This document shows positions 108-63,701 of a stretch of DNA of 64,000 bases, one piece after another. Position numbers and translations under genes: made by a program. Position 1 is the stretch's first letter. Every line of letters starts with the position of its first letter. Below the pieces are notes generated by a model. That model saw nothing but the letters and a program-made list of their open reading frames with translations, made no database searches and had not been told where the DNA came from. This DNA is from Amoebophrya sp. A120 (lineage: Eukaryota; Protista; Dinoflagellata): NCBI GenBank assembly GCA_905178155.1, contig CAJINV010000002.1:3973838-4037837 (forward strand). The letters run 5' to 3'.

Positions 108-3100
108 GGAGGCGGGGGTGAAGATCCGAATTTCGATCATTACATGGACCAGATTGCGCTTGCCGGCAATTTTTCCGCAGAAGTTTTTGGCGAGCCAGGA
201 GGTTTTGACGCGGTTGCAGAAAAAATCACGGTCGATATCATATGCAAAAACGTCCCCACCCCATAGTCAAGATTGATGGGAACGTAGCAACACAAATCCA
301 GAAGTTTTTGGAGCCACGCATGACAAGTTGCAGTCCGTAGCGTGGTGCATGTTAGCAAGGACAGCCGCATCACAAATACATCTGTTTATACTGTTTGCAG
401 CATTACAAACAAGGTCATGGCGCGGGGACAGAGTCCCCGCGCTGCGACCTTGCGGCGAAGAAGGGCCACCCGCGGTGGCTTTTCTTGCCCATGATGCGGC
501 AGGTTTTTTTTTTTGCGACAGAACGGGGTGGCTTGGCGCCCGTGGTGCCGGCGCCCCCCCTGGAAAAATGCGGCTTTTTCTGCGCCCCTGGGCGGGGCGC
601 CCCCCCCAAAGGACTACCCACGACCAACCGAGGGCGCGGCCGTCCGGGAGGTTGTTCTCCCGAACCAGGGCGCGCGGGCCTGTTTCTGCGCCCCTCCGCG
701 GGGCGCCTCCCCCAATGGACTACCCAAGACCAACCGAGGGCGCGGCCTTACCTCCAGGGCGCGTGGACCTGTTTCTGCGCCCCTTGGCGGGGCGCCCCCC
801 CCAAAGGACTACCCACGACCAACCGAGGGCGCGGCCGTCCTGGAGGTTGTTCTCCCGAACCAGGGCGCGCGGGCCTGTTTCTGCGCCCCTCGGCGGGGCG
901 CCCCCCCAAAGGACTACCCAAGACCAACCGAGGGCGCGGCCTTACCAGGGCGCGTGGACCTGTTTCTGCGCCGCTGGGCGGGGCGCCCCCCCCGAAGGAC
1001 TACCCGCTACCAACCGAGGGCGCGGCCTTCGTGGAGCCTGTTCTCCCGAACCAGGGTGGGCGCGCGGACCTGTTTCTCTCTGCGCCCCGGGGCGGGGCGC
1101 CCCCCCCAAAGGACTACCCAAGACCAACCGAGGGCGCGGCCTTCCCAGGGCGCGTGGACCTGTTTCTGTGCCCCTGGGCGGAGCGCCCCCCCCAAAGGAC
1201 TACCCACGACCAACCGAGGGCGCGGCCTACCTGGAGCCTGTTCATTCTCCCGAACCAGGGTGGGCGCGCGGACCTGTTTCTGCGCCCCTGGGCGGGGCGC
1301 CCCCCCAAAGGACTACCCACGATCATGTGAGGGGGGGCGCGGCCACCTTCCTGGGGCCTGTTCTCCCGAACCAGGGCGCACAGACCTGTTTCTGCGCCCC
1401 TGGGCGGGGCGCCCCCCCCAATGAATAGGCAGCCAACCTTTGGCCCCCGGGGTCGGGCCTGACTCTTGAAAAGCGGCCCCCGGGGTCGGATGTTCCTTTT
1501 CCGAAGTCGGGTGGGGGGCATGTTTTGAGTTGTGCAGGAGGTTTTTGCCGATTCAGGTCGTGTTTGTTTGATACCCCGGAACAGGGGTCGGAACATACCC
1601 CGGAACACACCCCAGAACACACCCCGAAACACACCCCAGACCATGCCCCGAAAGCCACTTTCCGACAGTCAGGTCCGGGGTCGGGCCCGACTCTCGAAAA
1701 GTGACCTCCGGGGCCGGGTGTCACTTTTCCGGAGTCAGGTGTGGGGTATGTTTTGGGGGGTGCATGAGGAAATGGCCGAGTTAGGTCGTGATTGATACCC
1801 CGGAACATGGGTCGGAACATACCCCGGAACACCCCCCAAGTGATCACTTTTGGGCAGTTGCTGCAGTTTAAATAGTAATGCCAAAAGACGATAGGAAATG
1901 CCTCCCTTGGGGACGCGCATTACAAATGTTCCTGTAATTGCATATCTGCAGGACAGCTCTGGGGTGGGGACGTTTTTACACAGGATAGTCGATCAGGCTG
2001 CTCTCATGATTGTAGCCTTGAACGAGACAACCGACCAATTTGTGGCGCAGCTCATGGTTGGCCTTGTGATGCAAATGTCGGTATACAAAGTGATGCCCTT
2101 CTGTTGCACAGATGGCAGCTGGCTGCCGAAAAGAACTTTTGCCGGCGAAAATTATAAAGCCGACGTTGACTGTGGAAAGATGGCAGATGCCGTTGCGGCG
2201 CTGCAGGAGAAGATGCAGCAGCCGCCGCTGGTTAACACGGAGATGGGGCAGGAGTTCAGGAATAGGACTATCGCGATATGGATTGCAAAAATGTCTGGGT
2301 CTGGAAGATTGCCAGGTTTGTCATGCAGGTTTTCCATAACCCATGAGGTCTGGTATGTAGGACATAGCATGACAGATTCTGCGAAGCCTTTCCAATGCCT
2401 ATCCTGCGTGAGAAACTGCCTCTCGATTAGGTCAAAAGTGCACAACCTTTGGCAATCATGCAACACAGTTTTTTGCCTGATTCAGATTTAGCATGACAAG
2501 TTGCATTCTTCCAGACCCAGACATTTTTGCATTTGATACGCGAAGGAGATTTGCAATTCTGCGCCCGAAATTCACATTGCCGAGATGGCTTTGGATGCGG
2601 TGGAGGACAAACAACCAGGCGCTACCGCCGACGCTGCCTGCCTTTTCGTGAAAAACGCGGCCTTGGCCAACGCCAACAAGTGTTGCGAAGGAGCGCCGAG
2701 CAACACGTGGCGGGTCGTTTCGCAAGAAGACGGAGACGCTGAAAACTCCGCCGAGGGAAATGAAATCGGTGGAGACGAGGATGATTTTTATACAAGCCGC
2801 ACCTGCGGCGCCGTTTTCGAACTGCACTTTCGCATGAAAACGCACATCGAGAACGAAAAAGCAAACAGCGGAAAAAACAAACGAGGATCAAGAACATACC
2901 CTTGACGGACACTGCAAGCTGAGTGCTGACGGGGTTTTGGACCCCTTCGTGTTTCCGTCCTCGCTTAGTTGGCTGTGCACGGAGAAGTATGATGTTGCGG
3001 CACTCCATGATGTCGGGACGGTTTTGGCAATTGTGGAGGACGATGATCTACTTCCTGAAGATCCTGCCGCGGCGGGGGGAGACACAAACAACGACGACCA

Positions 3101-6158: not shown

Positions 6159-9100
6159 ATGAAAATCTACGTGTTCATGAAGACTCCTTGCCCTGTCGGC
6201 CGTTCTGCCGCCGCGGCGGCGTTTTTTATCACTATTGCGCTACAGGATCACGTGGTGAAGTTTTCCAGCGGACTGCGGGTGCAAGAAGTTGCGCGGCGGG
6301 CGGTGGCGCACGAAGTAGATGAAGAGCATGCTGGGAAGCAGGTTCTTCCCGGAGCACCAGCATTGGGCGTTGCCACCAGTCCAGCCTATCCAGACAACCT
6401 GGTAAACGCTGTGAGTGCCGCGGATGAAAAAGTAAAAAAAATTGACGTCGCCGACGGCGTATGAGAGTGCACAACTCCCCCTCCCCCTCATTTGTAATGC
6501 AAAAGCGTAAATCCAAGTGCTTCCCTGTGGCACTGTATGCATGAGAGATTTTTCCGGTAGCCCAAAGAGCACTACACTAGGTGCATGAACTTGTCATGCT
6601 CAGGCTCCACGTGTGCTGGTGTTTGTATTGCTGTTCATGCAGTACAAATGAGGGGGCGGGGGGGGGGTTGTGCACTGTCATACGGCGCTACCCTAGCTGC
6701 AGCCTCTCATGCGGTACACCAAGCCGTACCAAATGTAAAAATGTCTGGGTCTGGAAACTTGTGATGCTGGGTGGCATATCATGAGGAAACCACAAGTGCT
6801 GGCTCAGCATGAGAAGTTTCTAAGCTTCTAGGTATTGCCTATTCTGCATGACAAACTGCGTTTCTGCATGACAGAAAAGTGGCGCTCTTGGGTAACGTGC
6901 ATGACAGATTTGAGAGTCATGCCAGACACGCATGACAAACATGGACTCTTCCAGACCCAGACATTTTTACATTTGATAGGCCGGCGACGAAAACGACGCG
7001 TCGGCACGCGCTGGGGAGCCAAATTGTTGCAACGTCGAAGGAGTAGACCACCGCACGACCTGGAAGGCAACCGATGGTGCTTCCTGCCAGACGCTTTTCA
7101 CTGCCCTCAACACGTTGAAAACGGCCTGGAATACGCTTTCTCAAAAGGATATGGATGTGTCCGGATCGAAATCGACAAAATCGAAAAATTTGTAATGCCT
7201 AGAATGTAGGGCAAGTAAGGCCTGTGTTGGGGAGCAGGCAAATGAGACCGACTGCAAGCCTGTTTAGGGGAAGGCGATGCGCTGCCAAAGTAGCACGACA
7301 GGAGCAGTCTTCTTTGCCCAAACAGCATGACAGACTGGATTTTGGTGCTCCCGAAATTTGTCATGCGCCACTTGGAAACTGAGGCCCCAAGTGGTATCGA
7401 TTTTATGCATCACAAATTATTTCGATTTTGTTGATTTCGATCCTGACACTCCCATAAGAGAAAAGGGCAACGCTTTGAATGCCGGTTCCGGCGTGCCCGT
7501 CGACCTCGATCTGGCGGAAAAGTTTTGCAGAGAAGCGTATCAAATGCAAATGTGTCTGGGTCTGGAAAAGTGGAGCAAACTTGTAATGCGTGTCTGGTAT
7601 TCCTAGAAAATCTGTGTTGCGTGAGCAGCAGAAGAGCCGCTTCCTTTGTCATGCAAAAACGCGATTTGTTTATGCTTGTTAGACATCAGAAAGCGTTACA
7701 AAAACTCGTCATGCTTGGCTGCCATTGCAAGCGTTGCAATCAGCTGCAAATCAGCATCACATGTTTCCAGACCCAGACATATTAGCAACGCATAAAGCGG
7801 TACTTGCGAACGTCCGAGTCCTGGTGCGCGACCTGGATGCCACGGCTAATGCAACCGCTCAGGGGAATGCCTGCACGGCGGTCACGAATGTTATCCGTCG
7901 GACTAAGAACTGGTGTTGCCATTATGATACAGACGGCATTACGACTATCTGGTCGGACCCAACGGACAGAGCAGGGTCGCCTCTGAGCACATTGTGCGCC
8001 AGGATCGCCTCTGAGCAGAGCAACATGGAGGCAAAAATCAGCAATCTTGGGGGTGTATCAAATGCAAAGATGTCTGGGTGTGGAAGATTGCCAGGTTTGT
8101 CATGCTTGTCTGGCATGACCAAAAAGTTTGTGATGCGTGTCCAAGAAGAGACCCTTTTGCCTGTCATGCAAAAACGCAGTCTGTCATGCGAAAAACGCAA
8201 CACAAGGAAGCGCAGATATTTCTCATGCTTGCCTATGCATTACAGAGCATTCACTATTGCCAACGCAGCATTACAAGTTTCGGTTTCCAGACCCAGACAT
8301 TTTTACATTTGATAGGGTGGCATCCCCATCGATAGAAATGCGGTTCCGCAGTGTGGGGATTATCCCACGAAAAAAGTGTTACAGTTACACATTTGTTGGA
8401 ACTTCAGCAACACAAGCTTGCTCTAGTACATTACAGAGAAAACTTGCAATGCAGTGATCCTAAGGGAAAACGTGTATGAAACGAGGCTCGCATGGCTGAG
8501 GCTTTCCGGCATGAGAGAGGTTGTCTGTCATGCGCGTTCTGCAACGCAATGTGTAGCTGTGATACTTTTTTCTTTGCATAGGGATGGTATCCCTTTTGAA
8601 ATTGCACGCTTCATTACTAAGACCGAACTGGGTGCAGTGTGCGAGGCCTTCTTCATGTGCCATATAATGCACCTCCCTGAAGACGAAGTCAATGATGATG
8701 ATGATGATGATGATGACAGTGCCGAGTCCGAGATGTTGCCAGATGGCAGGGTGATGCCTGACAGTGCCGCGAACAAGGTGGAGCTCGATGCTGCTTGCGC
8801 ACTTCCACTTCCGCCCGCGGAGAAGATCCCCGCTGCAGTAGAGCATGAGGGGAACAAGGTTCTTTCCGGAGCACCAGCATTGAGCGTTCTTGCCAGTCCA
8901 GCCTATCCAGACAACCTGGTAAACGCTTATGACCCGCTCAGACGTTACAATCTCTAATCGGTTACCATAGAATCTGGAGTTTGTATTGCATGATGAGCAT
9001 GACAGATTCGGGTTCTGCCAGCATTCCACTTTCTGTAATACAAATTTTGCCAGATAAAAATTGTAGTGCGGTTCGGGACTCCGACTCCGGAACTTGTCAT

Positions 9101-10730
9101 GCGCAATCCTATAGGATGTGGCTAGATAATGCATTTCTTGCATCACAGATTTCCATATTCTATGGTAACCGATTTGAGATAGAGATTGTAACACCTGAGC
9201 AGGTTATGACGCTGTGAGTGCCGCGGATGAAAAAGTAAAAGAAATTGACGTCGCCGACGGCGTATGAGAGTGCACAACTCCCCCTCCCCGTCATTTGTAA
9301 TGCAAAAGCCTAAATCCAAGTGCTTCCCTGTGGCACTGTATGCATGAGAGATTTTTCCGGAAGCCTAAAGAGTACTACACTAGGTCCATGAACTTGTCGT
9401 GCACAGGCTCCACGTGTGCTGGTATTTGTATTGCTGTTGATGCAGTACAAATGAGGGGGCGGGGGGGGGGTTGTGCACTGTCACACGGCGCTACCCTAGC
9501 TGCTGCCTCTCGTGCGGTAGTGCAAGCCGGCGACGAAAACGATGCGTCGGCACGCGCTGGGGAGCCAAATTGTTGCAACTACGAAAAAGACCACTCTATC
9601 ACCTGGAAGGCAACCGATGGTGCTTCCTGCCAGACGCTTTTCACTGCCTTCAACACGTTAAAAACGGCGTGGGATACGGCTCCAGAAAGCGAAAAGGGCA
9701 ATGCTTTCTTGCATTTCGGTGCCGTCGTGGGAACGGATCTGGCGAAATCGTTTTGCACAGAAGCGTATGCATTGCAAAAGTATCTTCGCACTCGTATAAA
9801 GAAAATGCGTCACAAACTATTTCCTCAGCATGAGAAATGAAATTTGTAATGCGGATTTAGCTTGAGTAGAGCAAGGGCATTATAACTGCGAGTACTTACT
9901 ACGAGTGCGATACTTTTGCACAGGATAAAGCGGCACTTGCGAACGCCCAACAACTGGTAGGCAACCTGGATGCCACGGCTAATGCAACCGCTCAGGGGAA
10001 TGCCTGCACGGCGGTCACGAACGTTATCCATCTATCCAAGATGAAAAAAACTGTGTAAGTGTAACTTTGATGTGTTGCAGAAGAAAATGCAAACCTGTTT
10101 TTAATACACTTGTCATGCTGCACATGCATCCTCGGTAGAGGCTATTTATTTCGTACTTGTTGTTTTCAAGTACTTGCTACGCATGTATTTTCTGTGTCAT
10201 GCAGAGCAAAGAACTATGTGAAGATCATGCTATTTTTCCTCGTCCATAGAAGCTTACGCGTACGCAGTTTTTTCTTGCATACCATCGGACTAAGAACTAC
10301 TGTTGCAGAGAGGATACAGACGGGACTAATGATGCACAGAGGATGCGGGATAAGCTGCTCGGACCCGTCGGGTACCTCGGCACTGTCTGGTCGGACCCGA
10401 CGGGCAGCAGCACATTGTGCGCCAGGGTTGCCTCTGAGCAGAGCAAGATGGAGGCAAAAATCAGCAATCTTGGGGATAGCATCACCTCCATCGATAAAAA
10501 TGCGGTTCCGCAGTGCGACTCCCCGCCCTTTATTGCTAAGAGACTACTGGCCGGCGCATCTGCCTTAACACTGTGCGGGGCCACCTTGGAGGGGATGAAG
10601 GAACTTTCTTGGCGAAGAAGAAAGTCCGCTTCGAGGCCGTACGATGTAGTTTTCTCCTCGGAGGGGCCTTTCATTCCTCTGGGAGACGGAAGACGACGAT
10701 GAAGGGACCTTTCTTCTCAATTGCTGTTAG
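6159..10730 (+). CDS. Cys-rich secreted/surface-type protein with two tandem internal domain copies and 10 introners
   Basis: Removing 10 elements (+5 bp each) gives an open 687-codon frame from 6159 to 10702. It has an N-terminal hydrophobic segment, and the domain PAYPDNLVNAVS...EPNCCN...TWKATDGASCQTLF occurs twice. The family C-terminus EGTFLLNCC* (stop 10728-10730) lies one base out of frame at the G-run ~10681. Confidence 0.85.
6460..6682. mobile_element. Introner family E (223 bp)
   Basis: TIR TATGAGAGTGCACAACTCCCCCTC; TSD CGGCG/CGGCG. Confidence 0.92.
6727..6978. mobile_element. Introner family A (252 bp)
   Basis: Starts TAC; TSD AGCCG/GGCCG; the paralogous site at ~9524 is empty. 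Confidence 0.92.
7150..7456. mobile_element. Introner family H (307 bp)
   Basis: TIR TATGGATGTGTCCGGATCGAAATCGACAAAATCGAAA; TSD AAGGA/AGAGA; empty in the second domain copy. Confidence 0.88.
7538..7794. mobile_element. Introner family A (257 bp)
   Basis: TSD AAGCG/AAGCG. Confidence 0.92.
8056..8314. mobile_element. Introner family A (259 bp)
   Basis: TSD GGGTG/GGGTG; empty at ~10472. Confidence 0.92.
8361..8580. mobile_element. Introner family G-like (220 bp)
   Basis: TATCCCACGAAAAAAGTGTTACAG...CTGTGATACTTTTTTCTTTGCATA; TSD GGGAT/GGGAT. Confidence 0.9.
8928..9208. mobile_element. Introner family F (281 bp)
   Basis: TIR TATGACCCGCTCAGACGTTACAATCTC, ends ATG; TSD ACGCT/ACGCT; empty at 6406-6410. 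Confidence 0.9.
9263..9485. mobile_element. Introner family E (223 bp), duplicate of 6460-6682
   Basis: Near-identical sequence at the same site; TSD CGGCG/CGGCG; ends ACA. Confidence 0.92.
9766..9927. mobile_element. Introner family B (162 bp)
   Basis: TATGCATTGCAAAAGTATC...CGATACTTTTGCACAGGATA; TSD AAGCG/AAGCG. Confidence 0.92.
10033..10281. mobile_element. Introner family G-like (249 bp)
   Basis: TSD CCATC/CCATC; empty at ~7895. Confidence 0.88.
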
Positions 10731-11999: not shown

Positions 12000-14112
12000 A
12001 TGAAGACTCCTTGCCCTCCTGTCCGTGGCCGTTTTCCCACCGCGGGGGCGTTTTTTGCCGCTGTCTCGCTACAAGATCAGGTGGTGAAGTTTTCCAGCGG
12101 ACTGCGGCTCGTGCAAGAAGTTGCACGTCGGGTGGCGCACGAAGAGCATGCGGGGAAGGTTCTTTCCGGAGTAGCATTGGCGGATGTTGTGGATGCAGCT
12201 GGCGCGAAAGCAGCAGCGGAAGATGTGGAAGACGCTACCTCGGCAGGAGACGCTTGTGTAGGCATCACCACATTTGCAGGCACGCTAGACGACGAATTAT
12301 GTTGCTCCGGCCAGACCTGGGACGTTTCCAATGGCGACGACTGCGAGAAACTCAGTCAAGCGTTTACGATTTTGAAACTGAACGTGAAAGGCATGCCAGG
12401 GAATCCCCCGCAGACTTGCAGCCCATTACGTTTGACCACTGAGACGTCGACGGCGGACGTCTGGTGTGAGGGCGTTGCCAGTGCGGATTCGGACGCGGAC
12501 TCGTCCGATACTGCCACTCCCGGGGAGTTAGATGTCAGCGGCATTTTAGCCGTGGCGGCAAACACCACCGAAGTGGCCGACGCTTGCATGTCGTATCGGA
12601 GAGAAAAAAGGAAGTAGTGTGATGGTACAGGACCACTTGTCTTTGTCAAGCACCCCAAGGTCGTCGGGACAGAAACAGAAAACTATTTTTGCATCTTGAT
12701 CATACAGTGCTGGACTTCTATCACGGTGCAATGAATGTCATTGGCCCGCCCATGATAGACCCTGTCAATAATCTCGCTTTCTCGCACTTTTCTCTGTGAT
12801 ACGTCCCTGAAGAGTCGGATGGCGGAGAATTCTGCTACGTGTTGCGGCGAAAACGGGTGGAATGCCACTGCCGACGCGATTTGTCAAGACCTGAAAGCCG
12901 CCCACGACCACGTGAAGAACATTCGGGACCAAAGCCAACCGAGCCCGGACATGTGTCAAGAGAACGTGATTGGCGCGACAGCGGGTGCGTTGGAATGCGC
13001 CGCACCAGTCGTAGGACCGGAGTTGACCTATGAGGCCCTTGAGGCGGCGACTCCGGGCGGGGGCACCAACCCCGAAACGCAGATCGCGTTCTGCACGTGG
13101 GTGGCGCCGATGTTGATCAGCGCGCAGGTATGCCTTACAAGTATGTCTGGGTCTGGATAAAAAGATTCATGCTGTTGAGTCTTGCTCTTGCATGACGAAG
13201 CAGCCTTGCGTACAGCGTGAGCGCATGCACTAATACAATTTTATTTTTGGGCCATCTCTTTGCCTTTGCGAGTTCATCTTCATTCGTACTCAGCGCGACA
13301 AACTGCCTTTACGAAAAGCTGGCCAACCCTCCTCGTCATGAACCACAGGCACAGATCTTCTTGGCACCATCTGTTAGCTTTCGCATCGCAAAAAATTCAG
13401 AGCCAGATACCATATTTGCGATGCATAAGAGGAGATCTGCTGTACGGACCAGGATGAATGGGACACTAACAAAGGCGGGGACGTAACGCTGGCCGACGCC
13501 TCCACACGGCCCCTCTGCGACCACCTTGAGAGGCATTTTGTGCATATTAATGGAAAAGGTTGGCCGGCCGCGGAGTGTACAAAACCCGAGTTGTTCCCCT
13601 TTCCCCTGAATTCGGCTTGCACCATGGCCCTCCCGGAGGTTCCCGGCGACCTCAACGCGGCAGGAATTCTAGCGGTGCAGGTGCTTGACCTTTTTCGGAT
13701 CCAGAGCGCCTGCAAGTCCCTGGCCCGTCTGATGAAAGCCACCAGCGCGGAAGAGTGCTGCGACTCGCAGACTGGTGAGTGGCAGTACTCAGCAAAGCCG
13801 CCGACCTGCCAAGAAATCACAGACGCGCACAGCCATGCTCTGACCCTGCGCTTGGGCAGCGCGGGGCCGGAGGCCGGTCTCTGTGCCGACGAGCTGATTG
13901 GCGGTCAGGGTCCGGGGGAAGTGGTTTGTGCTTCATCCGAGATCGTTGTGACTGAGACGCCACAGAACGGGACAAATTCGGGCAACCAGACCACGACCAC
14001 TACTACCACCACGACCGAAGACGAGGCGGTGAATATCGACGCAAAAAACGAATCGGTCTCCAACAGCACCACGTCGGCCCCAGAGGCCTCCCTTCACCTC
14101 CAGTGTTGCTAG
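12000..14112 (+). CDS. Cys-rich secreted/surface-type protein (~531 aa), paralog of the 6159 gene, with 2 introners
   Basis: The N-terminus MKTPCP...LQDQVVKFSSGLR is shared with the 6159 gene; removing 2 elements joins three ORFs; repeated CC motifs, a Thr-rich stalk, and ends LQCC*. Confidence 0.85.
12594..12801. mobile_element. Introner, G-like (208 bp)
   Basis: TATCGGAGAGAAAA...TTTTCTCTGTGATA; TSD TGTCG/CGTCC; frame restored. Confidence 0.8.
13129..13427. mobile_element. Degenerate introner family A (299 bp)
   Basis: TSD GCAGG/AGAGG; can also be read as a GT..AG intron 13128-13431. Confidence 0.8.
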
Positions 14113-15638: not shown

Positions 15639-18600
15639 ATGTGGAAGAAGCGGGAGCAGCGCAGCAGCTTGTCCCGGTCGTGCGGCTCGAAGCCCTGGGC
15701 AGGACTACGAGCACGTTTCACCCTCTTGTTTGCTCCACTCCTCACCTCCGCGCTGCAACTCCAGGTGGTCTCTCGGAACAAGAAGAAGACGAGCCGGGAT
15801 CTTCACGTTGCGGACCACAAGAATGATCAGCGGAAGGTGTTGAAGAAGAATATTAAAGCCACGACAGCTCCTTCTCCTTTGCACGGTGGTGGACTAGATG
15901 GTAGTAAAAATGAACAACCAGAAAGAGCAAGCAGCTCCTTGTCCTTGTCGTCACCGACTACAGCAGCTTCCGAACAAGAAGAACATGTTCATCAGAAGAA
16001 GATCCTCGGCGAAGAAGAAGAAGAAGAAGAAGTGGAGCAGCAAGAGCAACTCTCCCGTCGCTTGACGGCGGAGCCGCGACTGGATGAACGGGATGTTGAT
16101 CCAGCTGAAGGCGAACAAGAAATGTTGAGCCGGACGAGGACGTCGTTCACCTCCAAAAAGATGTTGACCAGCACCGCCGTCGCTGCGCGTCGAGAAAACA
16201 AGTCTACTAAACAGGCACGAGGACACCAGCACGCGATGATGGGGCGGACCACGGCGAGCCGCGGTCTTCGACAGCAAGAAGTTGTATCGGATCGACGCGT
16301 GCAGTATCAAGTGCAAATATGTCTGTGTCTGGAAAGTTGTGATGCAGGTCACTGAATCTTCATAGCCACACTGTATCTATGTAATGCGCCGCCGAGGCAT
16401 GACAAGTTTGTTTATGCTTCTGTGTTGCGTATTCCGCATGAGAGAGACACTGCGTGTAGTTTGCATGACAGGCAAGAGGAGCTCTTGGTTGCCACGCAAT
16501 ACAGATCCCAGAGTCAACATGCCAGACTAGCATGACAAATCTCGCAAGCTCCCAGCCCCAGACATAATATTTGCAATCCATATGCAGTCGTCGACAAGGG
16601 CGGAACCGGAAGACGATCCCAATATCAAAAAGAAAAATTCCCCCCCATATCGGAAACGAAATTTGTGATGCTGAATTTGAGTACACAAATCGACTTGTAT
16701 TGCTAGAAGGACAAGAGACGCACTTGCGGCCTGAATTGCAGGCAATTTGTCATGCTGTTTCCCACTGCCAGTTGCCTCGCGTCATGCTGGAGATGCAATA
16801 CTTTCCCACGCTAGCTAGCACTACAGTCCGCATCTTTTGCCTTCTAGCATCGCAAAGCTGATTTGTGACCACAAATCTGCATCACAGATTTCCGTTTTGA
16901 TATGGGGAGGGGGGATTTTTGTTCTTGATACACGATAGCTGCTTCTTCGAGGAGGGCGAATACCGGAGCACATGTACCTTATCCTAAGTAAAAACGTCCC
17001 CACCCCATTACTATCTATTATATTCATGCGAAAATATTGGCTAGAGAGGGTAAACGAGAGGTGGCCGGGAGGTCAAAAAGAGGTCAAAAAGAGGTCGACA
17101 GAGGTGGAGAGGTGGCGCGGGAGGTAGTTCGGGAGGGTGGCCGAGAGGTGGCGCGAGTATAGCCCGCCGAAGGGGTCGCCCTTTGGGGCCGCTAAGCGGC
17201 ACGGAGGTGGCCGAGAGGTAAAAAAGAGGGCGCGCGAGAGGTGGGCAGAGGTGCCGAGAGGTTGCGCGAATAAGGGCGAACCTCTCGCGCACCCTCTGGG
17301 CCACCTCTCGGCCACCTCTGTCGACCTCTACCGGCGAGTATAGCCGGATTATTCGCAACACCTCTCGGAGAAGGTGAAAAAGAGGGTCTGCGAGAGGGGT
17401 GCAAAAACTCGAATCCGCCCGGCACGCGGCCAATTTTGCTTGGGCCTTTTCATCGCGCAGGCCCGCACCCTTTCGCGCCACCCTCCCGCGCTACCCTCTC
17501 GCGCCACCCTTTCGCGCCACCCTCTCGCGCCACCCTCTCGCGCCAGCGATTTCCGCCGAGAAGCAAATAGGGCGGGGGCGGGTGGGTGATCAAAAAAGGG
17601 CATTGCGGCCCCCGTTCTGTTTCCTTCGGCATCTATGTCGGAGCGGCTTCTCTTCGCCCCCAAGCTTCGCTGCAGCTGCTCCCTGCGCATAGCGCCTGAA
17701 GGCGCGGGAAGCGCGCAGGAGGCCCAGCGGGTTGAGATGGCGCAAACCGGCGCCAGTATTTCCTTCGAACTATCACGCCATGCGCAAAGCTCTGGCGCTG
17801 TGGCGCGATCCGCAAATAGTCCTGCCCCGCCACAACAGCCGCTCGCCCCGGCGTCAGCCGGGGCATGGCTGGTAGCTGTCATGCAGATTTGCAGTGACAG
17901 GAAGATTTGTTTTTGTAATGCGCATTCCCATGAGAGGCATTGATTTCCAATCGGGTAGTTTTGGACTTCGTAATGCTCGTATACAGGATGAGTAGATGGA
18001 TTTGTCGTGTTGCAGCTTTACTTATCTAAACTGCACTACAATATACAGAGACGAACTTGTCATGCTGGATTCCCAAAACTTGTCGATTTGTGTTGCGAGA
18101 TCCCCATCTTGACTCCCGGGCGGGGACGTTTTTGCTCAGGATATACTTACGCTGATGTTGTGCGATTCACGGGCGTCGACGTGGATCTAAACAGTGAGGC
18201 ACTGGTATCGAGTGTAAATATTTCTGGGTCTGGAAGGTTGGATCTGTATTGCATGTTTCGCATTCCTAAAAAATCTGCATTGCATGAGCACCAAACAAAC
18301 TGCCACGCTTTCCTCGTGCAAAAGCGCAGTTCGTAGTGCGTTCTGCGTATCATGAGAAAGCGTTTGAAACCTTTGTGATGCTGCACTGCGCCTAGAGGCA
18401 CAGTCAATCATGACCATTCAGCATTACAAGTTTCCAGACAAATATTTGCAATCCATAAGTGGACGGCGTACTTGGCTGGTACCCGACCCCCGACCTGATC
18501 GAAGCTTGCTGTATGGCCTGCTCAAACGTTACAATCTCAACAAACGTTACAGTAGAATCTGGGTTTTGTGTTGCATGATGAGCATGACCATAGACGCGCA

Positions 18601-48000: not shown

Positions 48001-48469
48001 CTTCCAGACCCAGAGAGACATTTTTACATTTGATACCGCAGGGGGGTCACGGTCTCGACGAATCCGAAAATGGTCAAGGATTTTGCCCGCTTTCTCGTCA
48101 ACGCGTACCGACGGAACCATATGAAATGCAAAAGTATCAGTATCTTACTCGTAGTATTGCAACACAAATTAGCTCAGCATGACAAATGGAATTTGTCATG
48201 CTGATTTGGCTTGAAAAAGAAATTTGTCTTGCATGACTGCAAGTCGTACGAGTACGATGCTTTTGCACAGGATAAACCAAGATAATTTTTCCGAATTGAA
48301 CGCGGAAATGCTGCGGTCGCTGCACGGGAGTTACCGAGATTTCCAGTGGAACGTCACCTGCGGCTACGCCTTGGTCCCGTGCCCGAAGCATTTGTGCACG
48401 TATTCTTTCTACACGAGGTTACCCCACAACTTCTGCTTCCACATTTTCTCCACGCCGGTGCCGTTGTGA
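45098..48469 (+). CDS. Coiled-coil protein (~489 aa) with a possible C-terminal dynein-light-chain(LC8)-like fold; 8 introners
   Basis: Removing 8 elements (+5 bp each) leaves 1470 nt = 490 codons. The C-terminus KMVKDFARFLVNAY...LHGSYRDFQWNVTCG...FCFHIFST resembles LC8 secondary-structure order (by eye). Confidence 0.85.
45620..45871. mobile_element. Introner family A (252 bp)
   Basis: TSD TCATC/TCATG. Confidence 0.9.
45910..46058. mobile_element. Introner family B (149 bp)
   Basis: TSD GGTTG/GGTTG; near-identical to 25406-25554. Confidence 0.94.
46441..46725. mobile_element. Introner family C (285 bp)
   Basis: TSD GACCG/GACCG. Confidence 0.93.
46762..47082. mobile_element. Introner family D (321 bp)
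   Basis: TSD AGTAC/AGTAC; reverse-oriented sister of 16623-16930. Confidence 0.92.
47133..47400. mobile_element. Introner family A (268 bp)
   Basis: TSD AGATC/AGGTC; reverse-oriented sister of 25073-25337. Confidence 0.92.
47464..47616. mobile_element. Introner family B (153 bp)
   Basis: TSD GCTGA/GCTGA. Confidence 0.9.
47757..48035. mobile_element. Introner family A (279 bp)
   Basis: TSD CTGCA/CCGCA. Confidence 0.92.
48120..48274. mobile_element. Introner family B (155 bp)
   Basis: TSD AACCA/AACCA. Confidence 0.92.
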
Positions 48470-51123: not shown

Positions 51124-51155
<32 letters not shown>

Positions 51156-52674: not shown

Positions 52675-52812
52675 AAGTTTTCAACATCAACTGCGCTCAA
52701 CAAGTTAAAGCATCTGCTTAAGCTTGTTGCAAAACCAAGAACTTTTTCGTTCCCCCTACAACCAGTTCTAAAACCACTGTTCGCGTTCTCGCAAACACAC
52801 AACCCCATCAAA

Positions 52813-55800
52813 ATGGTTCTCACTGCCCAGAAGCTTCGCATCGCGGCTTTGGCCGCCGTTGCGCTCGAAGACCAGCGGACCCTGCACGCCTGGGCCGCGG
52901 CTTTGACGCGTGGCCGTCAAACGACCTCTCTCCGCCACGGCCGTGGGTCGCTGTTGCGTGAGTCCCGCGCCCGTCGCGAGCAGCTGGCCTCCGAATTCAT
53001 CCTGGTCAAAAAGCACACGAAGGCGCTAGAGGCGGGCGCTCTGACTGACCTGAAGACCGCGGTTGCGGCCGCTATGGATACACGCGATCAGACGGATGAC
53101 GCTAATGCGACGGATGACGAGAAAACCACTGCCGATGCTGATCTGCTCGCTGCTGTGACAACTGCAGTTGACGCCGCGTACCAGGCTGCGATCGACGCTA
53201 AGCAGATCACGGAGGCCGTCCCCGCCGAAGTGACACAACACATCACCGACATTATTACTGCCCGGGTTGCTGGCGAGGCCGGCGGCGGCGCGGCAGTCAC
53301 CGCTGCCATCGACGCGCTGTCCGCTTCGATTCCGGATGTTGTTGCACAACCCACGACGCTGGCCGAACAGTATCCAGGGGAAAAGTGCACCAGATGGTAG
53401 TTTTCACAAGTACTTAAGTGTTCATCCTGGCTGTGGAGGTGTTGCTGGATACGACTAGCACTATGTAAAATTGTGAATTTCAATATAGAATTATCGGTGC
53501 AAGGCGCACCCGCACGCGCAGGTCAGGACCAGGAGCTCGACGTGTACGCAGTTTGTCACCTGCTATGTAGTTCTGCTATATGGCCACTGACGCTATTGAT
53601 TTACATGTTCAGCATGTCGCGCTTTTACTTTTTTATAGATACTGTATCAGGATGCATGAGCATGTTGCAATCTTCTGTCCAGCACTACTTACAGGAGACA
53701 GAGACAGTGACACAGACAGACGACAGTGGCTACTCTTGTCAGCAACCGGTGCAAAAAATAAAAAACTAAAGTCTCTGCTTTCGCATTTTCCGGATTTCAT
53801 ACTTGAAAAAAGGATTTATACATTTAGATATGTTCTTGGAAGTGGAACTAGAGCATCGGTGCACTTTTGCTCTGGACAGCCCTGCTGACACTCTCGCGAC
53901 CACGATTGTGGATGCCGGCACCGACGATACGGCGGGTGCGGTCACCGCCGCGGTGGGAACGGCCTTAGACTCCCTCGTCGACAAGGAAATCGATGGCACT
54001 ACAATCACCCAAGAAATGGTCGACGCCGCCAAGGCTGACGTCGTTACCGCAGCGACCACCGCTAATGCAGACGCAGGCGCTATTTCAACGGCGATCCAAA
54101 CTGCCGTCCAAACGGCCATTGACGATGCTGCAACTGCGGCACCAACTTTTACGCCGACGGCGGACCCTACCAGCACGGCTTTGGTGAAGGACTTTGTCAC
54201 CGGCAATACCGAAACTGAACTTGATGACATCAAGACCGCACTGGGATCGGTTCTGTCTGTATCATAAGGAAGAATTCCCTCACTCCGTAGTTGTACTCGA
54301 AGTACAGATCATCTTAGGTGCAGCACCAGCACATGATGCTGCGTGATGTGGTACGCAATTGCAATGAGGCAGGGTTCTTCATTCATTTCGTATACGATGC
54401 ATAAACTATTTCGCTTGCCTGTTTATCGTTTTTTAGTTAGAGCCACGGGCGCAGCATGTCTGTGTAATAGGCGGGACTAGAAGAGTCGAGCTGCTATTAG
54501 CAATCTGGGACGTCGAGACGTCTCTTTTACATTAACTATAGCCGCAAGTAATTATGACGAAGACAAAGACTAGAGAAAAAGAAATGATCGCAATCGCTGT
54601 TTTTCTTTTTGTTTTTACAAAGTAAGACGAAGCGCCCGCCGCGCTCGTTTCCATTCATGCCGGACAGCAACCTCAGTCCTGCCCATCAAAACGCACAACT
54701 CGTGATGTAGTAGGTTAGATCGCGCAACAAGAACATCTATACATAGTTCATGGTTCTCGCAACGGTCTGCTTCGAGTAAATGCGGGGGGGGGGAGAGTTT
54801 TGCTAGTGACAGACCACGGCTGGCGTCCCCGCTGAGGCGGAAGGCTTGGACGACAAGATCACTACTCTCGCGGATTTGGTTAAAGCGGGTACCACCGTAT
54901 GCATCACAAATGATATGTCTGGGTCTGGAGCAGTAGTTTTGCCATAAGGTGAAGATGTGAGTAAAGCTGGATCATAGGAGGACAGTAGAAAAAGCTGTGT
55001 TGCGGATCAACAAGAAGAGCAAACACTTACAGTTGCACACCTTGTATGCTGTTCTCTTGGTGGTACGTACCTGTACGCAGTGAGCGATTTTGTAGTTTTT
55101 GAAAAGCGTACACCTACTTACTGTAAACTTGTAATGCTCTTGTGCGAATTTCAATTTTCGCACAAACCTTTACCTAAAAAACGCATCACAAACAAGCGCA
55201 CGTTTCCAGCTCTAGACATATTTGCAGTTGATACGCGGAGGGCGACGCCTATGAGGAGGCGGTCGACGCCCTGGCGCTGCTTGTGGACGCGGCTAAAAAA
55301 GCGGCGGCGGATGCTATCCTCAGTAAAAACGTGCATTCCAGCACTCCATGATATTGATTTGTCATGCAAATGACCTGCATGTTGATATGATGTTCCACAT
55401 GTGCATGTCGATTTTTCTACTCATGCGCAGTCCCATGAGGCATGCTTTCCAATGTTGCAGCTGTGGAATTCGACAATGCAGGAGCTGTGCCCTAATCAGG
55501 ATCGATAAGAGGGGCAACGCCAATCTATATCTGTGGCGCGGCTTTTAATATAGCCACGCACGACCACTTCTTCGCCTGCGTTGTCGAAATGTGAAGATGT
55601 CATGCGGAAATCACAAAGCTTTTGGATTTGTCTAGCAGATTCCCCATCTTGTTAGCTCTGGTGGGGTGCGGACGTTTTTACACAGGATAGTGGCGTCGAC
55701 CACGGACGCCCCGGTAAACGGCAGCGACGTTAACGCCACTATGCATTGCAAATATGTCTTGTCCTGGGTCTGAAACTGAATTATTAGCATGAATGCAAAT

Positions 55801-56172
55801 GTTCGGTCTGCAGGTTTCGCTTTATTCGCATCACCTTTCCAGAGGGCCGCTCCTCGGAATCAATGCGGGTTGTTCTAGCATCACAAATTCTATTGTTCAG
55901 AAGGTCTTTCCTCTTTGATCTTGATGCCTAGCTGTATCCTGCATGACCAATGTTGCCTCCTCGGGTGACGAAGAGTGGGCGCTTGTTTTGCTGTGTCCAC
56001 GACAAAAATGTACAGGTTTATTCTACTATGATGTGGTCCACCACCACCACGACCAGACCTAGCATCACAAAGAACTTGCCATCAAAGTCTTTCAGATGAG
56101 GACCCAGACACCTATTTGCAGTGGATAGTCACCACCACAGCTGCACCAGCGGCCGAAGCACCTTCCTGCTAA
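52813..56172 (+). CDS. Ala/Thr/Asp-rich helical secreted/surface-type protein (~391 aa); 5 degenerate introners
   Basis: Removing 5 elements leaves 1176 nt in frame, ending TTTAAPAAEAPSC*; paralog of the 60913 gene. Confidence 0.78.
53371..53878. mobile_element. Old introner (508 bp), TSD lost
   Basis: TATCCAGGGGAAAAGTGCACCAGATG / CATCGGTGCACTTTTGCTCTGGACA; also an in-frame GT..AG intron 53370-53879. Confidence 0.72.
54260..54811. mobile_element. Old introner (552 bp), TSD lost
   Basis: TATCATAAGGAAGAATTCCCTCACTCCG / CGGGGGGGGGGAGAGTTTTGCTAGTGACA; also an in-frame GT..AG intron 54259-54812. Confidence 0.68.
54898..55233. mobile_element. Degenerate introner family A (336 bp)
   Basis: TSD CACCG/CGCGG; the paralogous site at ~62803 is empty. 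Confidence 0.8.
55315..55689. mobile_element. Degenerate introner family C (375 bp)
   Basis: TSD GATGC/GTGGC; duplicated at 62882. Confidence 0.82.
55740..56127. mobile_element. Degenerate introner family A (388 bp)
   Basis: TSD GCCAC/GTCAC; duplicated at 63270. Confidence 0.82.
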
Positions 56173-56930: not shown

Positions 56931-57014
56931 CCGCGACTGCATTTAGTTGTACATAGGACGCTGCGACACTGCATTTAGTTGTACATAGGACGACTGCATT
57001 TAGTTGTACATAGG
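56931..57014 (+). repeat. Short tandem repeat ACTGCATTTAGTTGTACATAGG x3, with a fourth copy at ~58126-58163
   Basis: Directly visible exact copies. Confidence 0.8.
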
Positions 57015-58448: not shown

Positions 58449-58724
58449 TATCCTGTGCAAAAGTATCTTATACTCGTACTAAAGTTTTGCAGTGAGTTGT
58501 TCCACTTCTACGTACTGCATGACAATAAAGCTGCGTCAGTGGTCACGGTTCTCCAATTTAGCATTGTAGGCAGCATTTTCTTCCCCCCTGAGATTTTTTG
58601 TCATGCGATAAGTACTTGATAGCAGTAGCACCAGGACCACTCAGTGTAATATCCACATCCAGGAGAGGACCACTCACTGTCACCCGATTAGTACGAAGGA
58701 GGTACGACTTTGCATCAATGCATA
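58449..58724. mobile_element. Family-B introner remnant outside any called gene
   Basis: TATCCTGTGCAAAAGTATCTTATACTCGTAC...TTTGCATCAATGCATA; no TSD. Another B-type right end lies at ~57795-57826. Confidence 0.45.
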
Positions 58725-60912: not shown

Positions 60913-63701
60913 ATGCTCAGTTCCGCGTCGAATTTCAAACGCCACCCTCGCGTCGTCACGGCCGCCCTCGCGGTTGTGGCAGACGTCGTGAGTTTTCAAC
61001 AACATGTGCTGCAGTCCTCGGCCGTCGCTTTGTCCTCCTCGTCCTCCTCGACACTCGTAAGGATCAAGACGAGCATGAGCAGCAGAAAAGGTGTAGTACC
61101 TGCGGCTGGTCCCAGCATCCGTGGAAGTAGAAGGACAACAAGAAAAACTCCGCCTTCGCTGCTGCAAAGGTATTTTTACGCGAAGATGAGGCATCATTCC
61201 TCGTCGTTGTTGCCCAGGACGAGTCGGGGACCCCACGATTTCTATGAGAAGATGACTTCTACACCCGGCCAGTTTTTGTCCGTGAAGGAGAAGAACTACA
61301 GCAAGGGTCAGAAGATGACTTCTACCACTTTGCTGTCGACGAGCGACTCATTTCCGGGTACGAAGGCGAGCGACGAGAGCACGAAAGAAGTCCAATATGC
61401 CGTGGCTTCGAGCGGTAAGTTTTCTCGGTGTACAACTCTTCAATGGGATGACCCGTCTGCTGTGCCCGCATGCGCAGAGGAGGCGAGGGATGACTTCAAG
61501 ATACTACTGGCTGAACAAGCGGGGTTCGGGATTGTTGACATACAGGGGATGGTCGACAAGATTGCGACGCTTGTGGATGCCCGGATTGTTCAATGTTCGT
61601 ACACTTGCAACCATTCTGCTACATTCGGCAACGGAGGAGCCAATTCGGAAAGACAGGATGAAATCAACGCGTACGTCCTAGCGGTGAACGACGTCGCTCT
61701 GCTCCTGGACGAGGCTAAACAGGCTTTGACTCCGGTTGCCGCACCTCCCCCAGCGACGCTGGCCTTGTTTTATCCCAAGGAAAAGAAGTTCCCCACGTCC
61801 ACCCAGGGTTTACTTACAAAGGTCATGCAACGATCAAAATCGTCGTGTACTTGCAAGTGCAACCTGGAGGCACTGCTGCATTCCATTGGTTCAACGCGAA
61901 AACTGTAGGCCCTCGTAGCAGCGAGACGAGGGACAACTCTGTTTTGCTTGTGCGGGGTTTCGCTTCTTATATTTTTCTGTCGCGTATGCAAATTTTCATT
62001 TTTAACTGCGTACAACTATTAGTATTACTGTTACTGTAACAGGAAAGCCAAGTAGAAACATTTTGATCTTGCGACTTCCCGATAAATTAGGGTGGCTATC
62101 GCTATTTCAGAAAAATAGTCTTAGCAATTCCATCGGTCGTGGCTGAAGATTTTACTTTTAGTCACTGTCGCTTTGTAAAGTAAAGTCGGAGACGAGGGGA
62201 ACGAAGTCACTCAGATTCAATCGATGCAAATATATGCATGTGAAAAGCCTAAATCGGATTTGATCGACAATGGTTTTACACTTGTGCTAGCTCCTCTGGG
62301 TGGGCTACTTTTATTGTTCTTTTCGATAGCGCTGCGGAGCTGACAGCGAAGGAGCTGTTCGGAATGAAAGACGAAGACGAAGATACCCTGACAACCAAAG
62401 TGACCAATGCCTTGACCGCCATTGTGGGCCAAAAGTACACTGCTGATGAAGTTGAAATCACCGCGGACATCGTTGCTGCTGTCGACACGAATGCCATCGT
62501 TGCTGCAGTGATGGCTGATGATGCAGATGAAGCCAGCATTCAAAAGGCGATCACGGACGCCGTCACGAAGGCCATTGACGATGCTGCCGGTGCTGGTTCC
62601 ACTTTCCAAAAGACCGCGTCCGATGAGAGCACCAAGACGGTCCAAGATGCCATTGACAATCTCGCCACCGACGCTAATACTTCTAACGCCATCGCGGAGG
62701 CAATCAAGTCGGCTCTGACCACCGCGGGCGTCGAAGCTGACGCGGTGACCGCCGCGGACGCGGAGATCCAAAATCTGGCCGCTCTTGTTGCTGATAGCAA
62801 CACCAAGGGCGACGACTACGCGAAGGCGGTCGACGCCTTGGCGCTGCTTGTGGACGAGGCGAAAAAAGCGGCGGCGGATGCTATCCTCAGTAAAAGCGTT
62901 CATTCCAGCACCCCATGATACAATATTGATTTGTCATGCGAATGACCACGACCTGCATGTTGATGTTCGGATGTGGTGCATGTAGAAGATGTCTCTACTC
63001 ATCCTGCGCAGTCCACCCAGGACCAGGAGGGTACTTAAGAGGGGCAACACGAATCTATATCTGTGGTGCGGCTTTTGATATAGCCGACCACGACCACTCC
63101 CTCTCCTGCGTTGTCGAAATGTGAAGATGTCATGCGGAGATCTTCACAAAGCTTCTGGATTTGTCTAGCAGATTCCCCATCTTGTTAGCTCTGGTGGGGT
63201 GCGGACGTTTTTACACAGGATAGTGGCGACCACGGACGCCCCGGTAAACGACACCGACGTTAACGCCACTATGCATTGCAAATATTTCTTGTCCTGGGTC
63301 TGAAACTGAATTATTAGCATGAATGCAAATGTTCGGTCTGCAGGTTGCGCTTTATTCGCATCACCGTTCCAGAGGGCCGCTCCTCGGAATGCGGGTTGTT
63401 CTAGCATCACAAATTCTATTGTTCAGAAGGTCTTTCCTCTTTGATCTTGATGCCTAGCTGTATCCTGCATGAGCAAAAATGTTGCCTCCTCGGGTGACGA
63501 AGAGTGGGCGCTTGTTTTGCTGTGTGTACGACAAAAATGTTGTACAGGTTTATTCTACTATGACGTGGTCCACCACGACCACGACCAGACGTAGCATCAC
63601 AAAGAACTTGCTAAAGTCTCTCAGATGAGGACCCAGACACCTATTTGCAGTGGATAATCACCACCACAGCTGCACCAGCGGCCGATGCTCCTTCCTGCTA
63701 A
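60913..63701 (+). CDS. Ala/Thr/Asp-rich secreted/surface-type protein (~495 aa), paralog of the 52813 gene; 3 introners
   Basis: Removing 61771-62328, 62882-63222 and 63270-63656 (+5 bp each) leaves 1488 nt in frame; the motif AVxxLALLxDEAK occurs twice; ends APSC*. Confidence 0.78.
61771..62328. mobile_element. Old introner (558 bp), TIR/TSD eroded
   Basis: TATCCCAAGGAAAAGAAGTTCCCC...TTGTTCTTTTCGATA; frame restored; equivalent position (after PxTLA) to 53371. Confidence 0.6.
62882..63222. mobile_element. Introner family C (341 bp), copy of 55315
   Basis: TSD GATGC/GTGGC. Confidence 0.82.
63270..63656. mobile_element. Introner family A (387 bp), copy of 55740
   Basis: TSD GCCAC/ATCAC. Confidence 0.82.

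Follow-up and report, generated by a model that had tools for sequence, protein, structure and literature searches.

Inverted-repeat elements that interrupt coding sequence in Amoebophrya sp. A120 stay in the DNA and, in the gene that was checked, are absent from the mRNA to the base; GT-AG ends are not needed for this removal. The window analysed, a 64,000-nucleotide stretch of this genome, contains 67 such elements with TAT...ATA ends, catalogued from 236 to 63656 and so across its whole length. Judged by sequence, they are members of the introner class already published for A120, of which 29,850 copies were reported (Farhat et al. 2021, PMC7789003). As here, those elements have TAT-starting inverted repeats in which variable bases lead into an A-run, flanking direct repeats, non-canonical junctions supported by RNA-seq, and no internal transposase. 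The published repeats are 3-5 nt long with a variable splice position and those in the window are uniformly 5 bp, which is no difference in kind, and the window proteins are 99-100 % identical to A120 proteins (P0001 99 %, P0002 100 %). The elements being already published for A120, the finding is not a discovery, and its novelty was overstated in the first-pass annotation.

Element DNA amounts to 21,260 bp, or 33 % of the window (66 elements counted), in 10 multi-copy families and 11 singletons. The TAT..ATA termini are exact in 56 of the 67 elements, and the two copies of the target-site duplication (TSD) match at 5/5 positions in 42, 4/5 in 11 and 3/5 or fewer in 14. Terminal inverted repeats (TIR) paired at 14/20 or better with an exact 5-bp TSD were found 27 times in the window and 0 times in each of 20 dinucleotide shuffles. 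A scan that ignored the TSD gave 26 TAT-starting TIR pairs shorter than 700 bp, of which 18 were flanked by an exact 5-bp repeat and 0 by one of 3, 4 or 6-9 bp; TIR pairs not starting with TAT had a 5-bp flank repeat in 1 case of 164. Metagenome loci were likewise called without the TSD (420 both-end matches; 42 dropped for lack of exact ends or a position at the edge; 321 unique), and an exact 5-bp repeat was present at 252 of the 321, a 6-bp TSD at 0, with flank identity of 0.93 for a length of 5 bp, against 0.25-0.30 for all other lengths. There were 214 distinct TSDs among 294, with no hot spot, and the target bias was symmetric (C at TSD position 1 in 58/173, G at position 5 in 56/173). 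Empty paralogous sites with one copy of the 5-mer were found for five elements. The elements are non-coding, transposon-like inserts that duplicated 5 bp on insertion; catalogue, shuffles and metagenome flanks agree with the first-pass description of 67 TAT/ATA elements with a 5-bp duplication.

All but one of the 67 elements (66) sit within eight ORFs that are opened by deleting each element plus 5 nt. The first-pass annotation had listed seven genes opened in this way; the opening was confirmed, the ORFs number eight, and the one at 27789..43876 also requires removal of two GT-AG introns. Its element numbers for 15639-26145 (19) and 27789-43876 (17) were correct, as was its view that these are Amoebophrya-type inverted-repeat introners needing precise removal, since retention produces a stop or frameshift in 65/66 cases. 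Because the eight ORFs close with these elements and the two GT-AG introns only, no insert lacking such ends has been missed inside them. The features are as follows.

144..2905, + strand: ORF of 245 aa after removal of elements 236-1987 and 2277-2538; the weakest of the eight (frame only, no RNA).
6159..10702, + strand: internally duplicated ORF of 686 aa; elements 6460-6682, 6727-6978, 7150-7456, 7538-7794, 8056-8314, 8361-8580, 8928-9208, 9263-9485, 9766-9927 and 10033-10281.
12000..14112, + strand: ORF of 531 aa; old elements 12594-12801 and 13129-13427 (TSD 3/5, internal motif absent).
15639..26145, + strand: ORF of 994 aa; 19 elements starting at 16305, 16623, 16980, 18206, 18512, 18895, 19681, 20650, 20836, 21238, 21915, 22241, 22621, 22920, 23338, 24694, 25073, 25406 and 25608 (last end 26066); frame evidence only.
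27789..43876, + strand: ORF of 3938 aa; 17 elements starting at 28124, 29500, 29862, 30167, 30825, 31503, 32023, 35631, 35950, 36347, 36692, 37721, 37981, 40194, 40532, 40811 and 43530 (last end 43679); RNA contig and frame.
28124..28352, no strand assigned: old element with TSD 2/5, its ends predicted to be unpaired in sense RNA; a transcript piece begins at 28355.
31858..32013, + strand: canonical GT-AG intron inside a 963-nt transcript skip of ORF 27789..43876.
43011..43191, + strand: canonical GT-AG intron inside a 336-nt transcript skip of the same ORF.
45098..48469, + strand: ORF of 489 aa; elements 45620-45871, 45910-46058, 46441-46725, 46762-47082, 47133-47400, 47464-47616, 47757-48035 and 48120-48274.
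52813..56172, + strand: ORF of 391 aa; old elements 53371-53878, 54260-54811, 54898-55233, 55315-55689 and 55740-56127 (TSD 1/5 to 4/5).
58449..58724, no strand assigned: the sole element lying in none of the eight ORFs; its TSD copies match at 1/5.
60913..63701, + strand: ORF of 495 aa; elements 61771-62328, 62882-63222 and 63270-63656.

Element 236-1987 is 1752 bp long, enlarged by tandem repeats, and the three ORFs within it gave no Pfam match. In ORF 6159..10702, paralogous sites that lack the element and have the 5-mer once lie at 6406 (55/55 identical), 9525, 7895 and 10474. Boundary placement is least secure for elements 53371 and 54260.

Contig 9 of run X3 (12.4 kb) consists, over ORF 27789..43876, of seven exon pieces with zero mismatches. 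Its six skips equal element plus 5 nt for each element crossed, 16 elements in total, which is what the junction check proposed in the first-pass annotation had predicted; with one junction end at 28124, these make up the non-GT-AG removal seen in RNA. The contig also drops both GT-AG introns, and the bin depths of run X3 show no coverage between genes, for which reasons the run behaves as RNA, its label being itself a guess. This RNA evidence comes from one contig of one run and one gene, and two raw-read RNA runs gave only 11 and 2 partial reads on the window. The frame test fixes the removed length modulo 3 only (element+2 opens 7/8 ORFs and element+8 opens 6/8), so that the value of 5 nt is set by the RNA contig. 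A GT-AG pair is reachable at 2/61 junctions, as the claim of its absence at most junctions implied, and GY-AG at 4/61 (five elements left out), whereas in canonical spliceosomal introners GY and AG are either brought by the element or co-opted. In the public A120 protein P0001, elements 45620 and 45910 are removed as element+5, followed by read-through into 46441; contig 10 of run X3 stops at 45613. Public protein P0002 (495 aa) has the same four exon blocks as ORF 60913..63701, with element+5 removed at all three elements, including 61771, whose TSD copies match at only 1/5. In DNA, run X1 spans exon-element junctions at a depth of 38-46, and the DNA contigs of this one run retain the elements at single-copy depth. 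An element-free transcript contig alongside element-bearing DNA contigs places removal on RNA, not at an IES-like DNA step; of the two substrates allowed beforehand, RNA stood and DNA did not.

The elements share an end consensus of TAT followed by A at positions 12-13 (119/132 ends) and an internal motif, TTGTNATGC, with 124 matches inside elements versus 5 outside, present in 60/66 window elements and in 304/321 metagenome copies. Families that had been called unrelated, at least eight by TIR, are thereby linked. Same-orientation copies of the motif are spaced 31-33 nt apart in 252/636 gaps, and its columns are better conserved than the remaining interior columns in 5/5 families. Elements are removed in either orientation: among those removed from RNA, the copies per orientation were 3 vs 2 in family A, 3 vs 1 in family B and 1 vs 1 in a third family, and metagenome copies lay 66 one way and 58 the other relative to the coding strand (124/263 scored). 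In old copies TSD identity and the internal motif decay and the ends persist. In the 21 elements without a close copy the TSD match was 3.4/5 and the motif density 0.71 per 100 nt, but the ends scored 1.9 and 1.76 out of 2; for the 46 younger elements the TSD match was 4.7/5 and the motif density 1.66 per 100 nt.

The cut register was expressed as k, the number of TSD letters retained by the 5' exon. From RNA, k is 2-4 at 28124, because the transcript piece begins at 28355, and at most 4 at 45620, where P0001 agrees; from the P0002 model it is at least 4 at 61771 (residues common to paralog P0003), at least 3 at 62882 and at least 2 at 63270. Removal likely occurs at fixed distances from the element ends. 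There is thin evidence from the imperfect TSDs for a single fixed cut, with the 5' break 1 nt outside the element and the 3' break 4 nt beyond it (k=4, from five junctions, the sole case of k≥4 being a gene model at a TSD 1/5 site). At k=4, T at +2 and A at +3 (66/67 each) follow from the TAT start, and G at +1 (26/67) does not exceed the symmetric target bias, which gives no indication that GT is selected; the 3' ends of the 67 elements have no AG and no conserved last base. TSD mismatches were synonymous in 5/21 cases in the window and 24/37 in metagenome loci (58 tested; the two sets differ).

Overall, the elements are DNA-retained inserts that, in the gene checked, are removed from RNA as element+5 in either orientation, probably by a relaxed spliceosome that reads the symmetric ends and measures fixed distances from them; to this account as a whole we give an even chance. 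Splicing would, with good probability, need the end signature (TAT followed by the A-run, and at the 3' end a U-run leading to AUA), and neither TSD identity nor the internal motif. A fixed cut after which the 5' exon retains four TSD letters, with an intron of the form N-UAU...AUA-NNNN, is slightly favoured. In this register the donor would carry U at +2 and A at +3, and a U-tract would precede the 3' cut by 15-19 nt. A U2-type spliceosome with altered end recognition might be the catalyst, for which we consider the balance level. A120 has a near-complete spliceosome in which U1 snRNA was not detected (PMC7789003). Spliceosomal precedent is offered by Fritillaria borealis, whose MITE-derived introns are reported to have TIRs and TSDs, to lack GT-AG and to be removed by a modified U2 spliceosome (PMC11282704; preprint 10.1101/2025.08.15.670264). 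In Fritillaria there are preferred dinucleotides (AG-AC, AG-AT) and a duplicated U2AF, whereas the window elements have no preferred terminal dinucleotide.

A non-spliceosomal route, in which a nuclease reads the terminal stem or end motifs and cuts at offsets totalling 5 nt, a ligase joins the exons and circles are released, has been proposed for the nonconventional introns of Euglena and hemistasiid diplonemids. These introns share with the present elements the terminal inverted repeats, slidable direct repeats, lack of GT-AG, stem-cut spacers and suspected MITE origin, and those of Euglena have free N3 and N5-6 spacers around the stem and form circles (PMC12501133; PMC12621601). Their signature, N3CDG...CH'GN5-6|R (PMC12501133), is unlike TAT..ATA, the lineage is unrelated, and circles are shown for those introns. 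The missing AG, the unfixed first and last bases and removal in both orientations all suit this route, although symmetric ends would let sequence recognition work both ways as well. Element ends are predicted to pair in 54/59 sense and 52/59 antisense folds versus 0/59 shuffles, yet in four elements removed from RNA the predicted pairing of the ends is weak or absent (28124, 0.0; 36692, 0.0; 29500, 0.26; 40532, 0.39), and the k=4 register looks like a donor plus a U-tract. The 'structure-guided' excision of the first-pass annotation is not demonstrated by this pairing, which is not predicted for 28124 and 36692. To our knowledge no candidate enzyme exists, and the nuclease-ligase route seems to us possible but somewhat doubtful.

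If the two TSD copies instead served as homology, through a sliding cut or an RNA template jump, the register would differ from site to site. The splice position described as variable in Fig. 3 of Farhat et al. (PMC7789003), the synonymous majority among metagenome mismatches, which leans to a sliding cut, and a TSD identity of 0.91-0.99, above interior conservation within families, are in keeping with this. It is nevertheless improbable, given removal at TSD 2/5 in RNA and 1/5 in a public model, TSDs that decay while ends persist, and the low synonymous share in the window. A hairpin with a short direct repeat is a recognised setting for template-switch artefacts, and the data are cDNA contigs; skips of that origin, with ribosomes hopping over inserts retained in the mRNA, are nonetheless extremely unlikely, since one 12.4-kb contig lacks every element that it crosses, including those with unpaired ends or decayed repeats, and retained elements nearly always break the frame. 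In favour of hopping, a 5-nt repeat always contains one whole codon, but we know of no precedent for 17-19 ribosome hops per mRNA. Excision from DNA in the expressed genome, as with ciliate IESs, would accord with transposon-like ends and precise removal, and contigs lose rare variants (15 joints listed, 1572 others; one DNA run). Ciliate IESs are, however, absent from the expressed genome, whereas here DNA contigs run into and across the elements and the element-free contig is mRNA; we know of no germline/soma split in A120, and this too is very remote.

The uniform 5-bp TSD, common ends and common internal motif make a single mobilisation system behind many families plausible, as the first-pass annotation had proposed of a DNA-transposon-like system, although no transposase or transposase domain was found in the window elements or in 127/329 long ORFs of metagenome loci; Farhat et al. 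likewise found none in A120 (PMC7789003). The earlier view that the signature fits no superfamily does not hold. IS3EU/GingerRoot and Ginger2/TDD transposons have integrase-like DDE enzymes, that of IS3EU/GingerRoot being IS3-like and encoded by an autonomous partner. IS3EU/GingerRoot elements have TA..TA termini, as here, but usually a 6-bp TSD, and the 4-5-bp TSD of Ginger2/TDD matches the 5 bp of the window (PMC10045372). A120 introner family 38 is annotated 'Ginger; 5-bp TSD, TA/TA Termini', with ORFs similar to Copia/Gypsy and a reported integrase-like ORF, the A120 families, including 'TIR DNA, Unknown', have TIRs like those of the window and many are 146-340 bp, and the TSD lengths called automatically for them lie between 2 and 11 (Gozashti et al. 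2025, PMC12130899). No coding element like family 38 was found in the window or the metagenome loci. Ginger termini are TGT..ACA. Those of Ginger2/TDD are not matched, ACA standing at one end in only 3/67 elements. A fairly probable agent, which would move all families and bind TTGTNATGC, is a DDE transposase that is encoded elsewhere and is of the retroviral-integrase/IS3 type, in the neighbourhood of Ginger2 or IS3EU.

The removal route and the mobilising agent are thereby reduced to specific questions: the fixed 1-nt/4-nt register, the dispensability of TSD identity, and TTGTNATGC as transposase bait. As a tentative reading, a palindromic splicing code could be matched to the cutting geometry of one undescribed integrase-type transposase (TA..TA ends, 5-bp TSD), with TAT..A-run ends read either way, cuts offset by 1 nt on the 5' side and 4 nt on the 3' side, and all families driven through TTGTNATGC arrays about three helical turns apart. 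Because the offsets sum to the 5-bp duplication, any insertion would on this palindromic reading be silent even once the duplication has decayed. If the register, the dispensability of TSD identity and the motif's role hold, the splicing rule would be co-adapted to the transposon, making insertion into coding sequence nearly free, and would supply a design rule for scarless synthetic introns. The text of Farhat et al. (figures S19-S25 aside) was found to mention neither orientation independence nor the decay of TSDs relative to ends, nor the k=4 register or the internal motif, and these were not met in print among the portions of the literature consulted.

Two exon searches matched public proteins of Amoebophrya sp. 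A120, P0001 at 99 % and P0002 at 100 % identity, and the element system of this organism is already known. According to the available excerpts of Farhat et al. 2021 (PMC7789003), RNA supports 66,565 introns in A120, of which more than 60 % are non-canonical and 29,850 are repeated. The inverted repeats begin with TAT and finish in three or more As, the direct repeats measure 3-5 nt (5 bp in Fig. S19 of that paper), and no transposase or U1 snRNA was detected there. Inverted-repeat introners and non-canonical introns are established in Amoebophrya by the A120 set, as the first-pass annotation had stated, and in strains Kv and AT5 introns are mostly GT-AG (PMC12005148, in the part available). 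No earlier description was found, in the text of Farhat et al. or elsewhere in the accessible sources, of orientation independence, dispensability of the target site duplication (TSD), a fixed cut register or an internal motif, which Figures S19-S25 of that paper may hold.

A search of the window for inverted TAT...ATA ends flanked by an exact 5-bp repeat yielded 27 pairs in which 14 or more of 20 bases pair; 20 dinucleotide shuffles yielded none. A window scan that assumed neither ends nor repeat returned TAT/ATA more often than any other terminal pair; a 5-bp repeat flanks 18 of 26 short TAT pairs versus 1 of 164 other pairs. A tolerant scan gave 66 candidates; six low-scoring chance pairs (5780, 14647, 44257, 44715, 53253 and 58464) were discarded and seven elements were added by eye, giving 67 after scan plus inspection, the number first annotated. 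Their ends are exact in 56/67 and the repeat is perfect in 42/67. Other TSD lengths were ruled out by the assumption-free scan and by metagenome loci, and the 5-bp repeat is a true target duplication because at five elements a paralogous site is empty and has the 5-mer only once, with 55/55 bases identical in one case. Element lengths in the window and the loci bunch near 150, 210, 260 and 310 nt, in steps of roughly 50 nt.

Of the elements, 66 sit in eight plus-strand ORFs (245, 686, 531, 994, 3938, 489, 391 and 495 aa). Excising every element together with 5 nt, and also two GT-AG introns, frees all eight of internal stops, as had been claimed for element removal in seven genes. Removal of 0, 1, 3, 4, 6 or 7 extra bases left 5-187 stops per ORF, and of 2 or 8 mostly none. 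With one element shifted by one base the frame stayed open in 13 of 132 trials, all close to gene ends, and leaving a single element in was tolerated for 1/66. Two long plus-strand ORFs, at 49389-51479 and about 4750-5621, contain no element and have no Pfam match.

Four sequencing runs were compared with positions 27700-47699, the only part of the window with RNA junctions, so that six of the eight ORFs lie outside the RNA comparison. In run X3, whose identity as RNA is a guess, one 12,397-nt contig matches seven exon pieces with zero mismatches and skips 712, 963, 838, 481, 707 and 336 nt. These skips equal the summed lengths of 16 elements plus exactly 5 nt each plus two GT-AG introns, the outcome foreseen for transcript junctions; precision per element is read from sums, because several elements fall within each of five skips, and the sixth comprises a single element plus one canonical intron. 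The contig in X3 lacks the canonical introns, and the bin depths of the run exclude intergenic coverage. The public protein models are consistent with removal of the element plus 5 nt at five junctions. P0001 (355 aa), which overlaps ORF 45098..48469, runs on into element 46441 and then stops; its annotation is probably truncated, since removal of six downstream elements yields 489 aa. Raw RNA runs X9 and X10 matched with 11 and 2 partial reads, which point in neither direction.

Removal very probably occurs at the RNA level. Excision from DNA, which the first-pass annotation had offered beside RNA, is unlikely: contigs of the DNA run X1 pass from exons into and across elements at a depth of 38-46, like exon-only sequence, among the joints listed, with the reservation that the assembly may derive from X1 and that contigs hide rare variants. 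It is likewise unlikely that the skips are a reverse-transcriptase artefact, with ribosomes hopping over the retained elements. For removal from RNA, the register of the cut was examined at differing TSD copies, where the mRNA base reveals which copy stays. With k the number of TSD letters kept by the 5' exon, RNA limits k to 2-4 at 28124 and to at most 4 at 45620, the public model P0002 gives at least 4, at least 3 and at least 2 at its three junctions, and at 6727 and 54898 the empty-site 5-mer equals the left TSD copy at the differing positions. An intron reading N-TAT...ATA-NNNN (k=4) fits all of these, and only k=4 satisfies the RNA, P0002 and empty-site constraints together, the sole case of k at least 4 being a gene model at a badly decayed TSD site. 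The variable splice position published for A120 (PMC7789003, in the excerpts available) speaks against k=4 and would agree with a homology-guided sliding cut, which is considered unlikely. ORF 15639-26145 holds eight imperfect TSDs, of which that at 16623 can distinguish k=4 from k=3. TSD mismatches are synonymous in 29/58 cases overall, 24/37 in the loci and 5/21 in the window (codon-likelihood test). Homologs of two metagenome exons were sought for the register: none was found for that of L056, and the four matches to that of L053 do not bear on it.

At k=4 the intron start resembles the two canonical donors of the window, and a T-tract lies at -15 to -19. A GT-AG pair is reachable at 2 of 61 junctions, which upholds the earlier remark that most offer none. 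Among other TSD-bearing introners, GY and AG are mostly carried along or co-opted (PMC9860276, as excerpted). No selection for GT at +1 was seen, and G at +1 is not in excess beyond the target bias, a point against k=4. A relaxed spliceosome would remove the elements, a proposal given even chances and favoured because the spliceosome is retained, U1 is missing, the register is donor-like and Fritillaria introns provide a precedent (preprint abstract; PMC11282704). A nuclease-ligase route, of the kind proposed for Euglena and diplonemids (PMC12501133, PMC12621601, in the parts available), may operate instead and ranks next to the relaxed spliceosome as the somewhat less probable catalyst.

Elements removed from RNA occur in both orientations within three families, and metagenome copies number 66 versus 58 by orientation. 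The structure-guided excision suggested at first agrees with the end pairing predicted for 54/59 elements but not with 28124 and 36692, for which no pairing is predicted, yet which are both removed in the X3 contig. The families had been called unrelated; all share an end consensus and an internal motif, TTGTNATGC, present at 5.8 per kb inside elements versus 0.12 outside. Its first copy usually lies 33-49 nt from an element end, its columns are conserved above the remaining interior columns in 5/5 families, and same-orientation copies are spaced 31-33 nt apart in 252 of 636 gaps, about three DNA turns, which would suit a putative DNA-binding protein. Where no close copy exists, in 21 elements, decay has reached both the TSD (3.4/5) and the motif, with four elements lacking TTGTNATGC, while the ends persist; from this decay pattern we infer that the ends serve splicing and the motif transposition.

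A long element that encloses a transposase or recombinase ORF, for which the first-pass annotation had proposed a search, was not found in the window or the loci; those starting at 236, 16980 and 23338 belong to the families and owe their length to tandem or GC-rich repeats, and one in metagenome locus L024 is swollen by such repeats too:

236-1987 (window): long element swollen by GC-rich tandem repeats, not coding
16980-18143 (window): long element swollen by GC-rich tandem repeats, not coding
23338-24650 (window): long element swollen by GC-rich tandem repeats, not coding
505-1608 (locus L024): long element swollen by GC-rich tandem repeats, not coding

Over 556 nt, 16980 shares 85 % similarity with interior sequence of the L024 element, whose ends are different. 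Pfam recognised no domain in nine ORFs, and no transposase or integrase in the 127 long ORFs (out of 329 in the metagenome loci) that were selected on composition and under a size cap; three TIR patterns had no match in viral contigs. The TAT..ATA ends with a 5-bp TSD are not unplaceable, as first thought: in the supplement of Gozashti et al. 2025 (PMC12130899), where most A120 families are TIR DNA of unknown superfamily (58 A120 rows), A120 family 38 is annotated 'Ginger; 5-bp TSD, TA/TA Termini', and the available main text gives it Copia/Gypsy-like ORFs but without Ginger termini and TSDs. An excerpt of PMC10045372 describes TA..TA ends and 6-bp TSDs for IS3EU and GingerRoot, which share these ends with the window elements but differ from their 5-bp TSD, and TSDs of 4-5 bp for Ginger2, a range that includes 5 bp. 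On the grounds of TSD length, element ends and family 38, the mobiliser is a putative integrase-type DDE enzyme.

A search with one TIR pattern gave 162 loci totalling 596 kb, which, among the matches listed, all belong to the metagenome assembly JACKZZ01. In these loci the same element families recur, up to 96 % identical, and orthologues of the window genes are absent; the assembly could be a source of presence/absence polymorphisms for the A120 families. An exact 5-bp repeat flanks 252 of 321 metagenome elements called without use of the TSD. The TSDs are varied (214 kinds among 294), which rules out a target hot spot, with a mild, symmetric bias for C at position 1 and G at position 5. The first TSD base falls at codon position 3 in 86/173 insertions in the loci, with 38 % expected from target bias, and in 23/66 in the window, without bias. 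Elements 7538 and 9766 occupy paralogous sites of a duplicated gene, with the same 5-mer, which bears no sign of a hot spot, and near-identical flanks, and belong to two families (257 and 162 bp), so that either the two inserted independently at the same site or one element has displaced the other kind. P0002, encoded by ORF 60913..63701, matches no Pfam family. The paralogous Ala/Thr-rich genes 52813-56172 and 60913-63701 share old elements at the homologous sites 53371/61771, 55315/62882 and 55740/63270, and have a third paralog, P0003, beyond the window.
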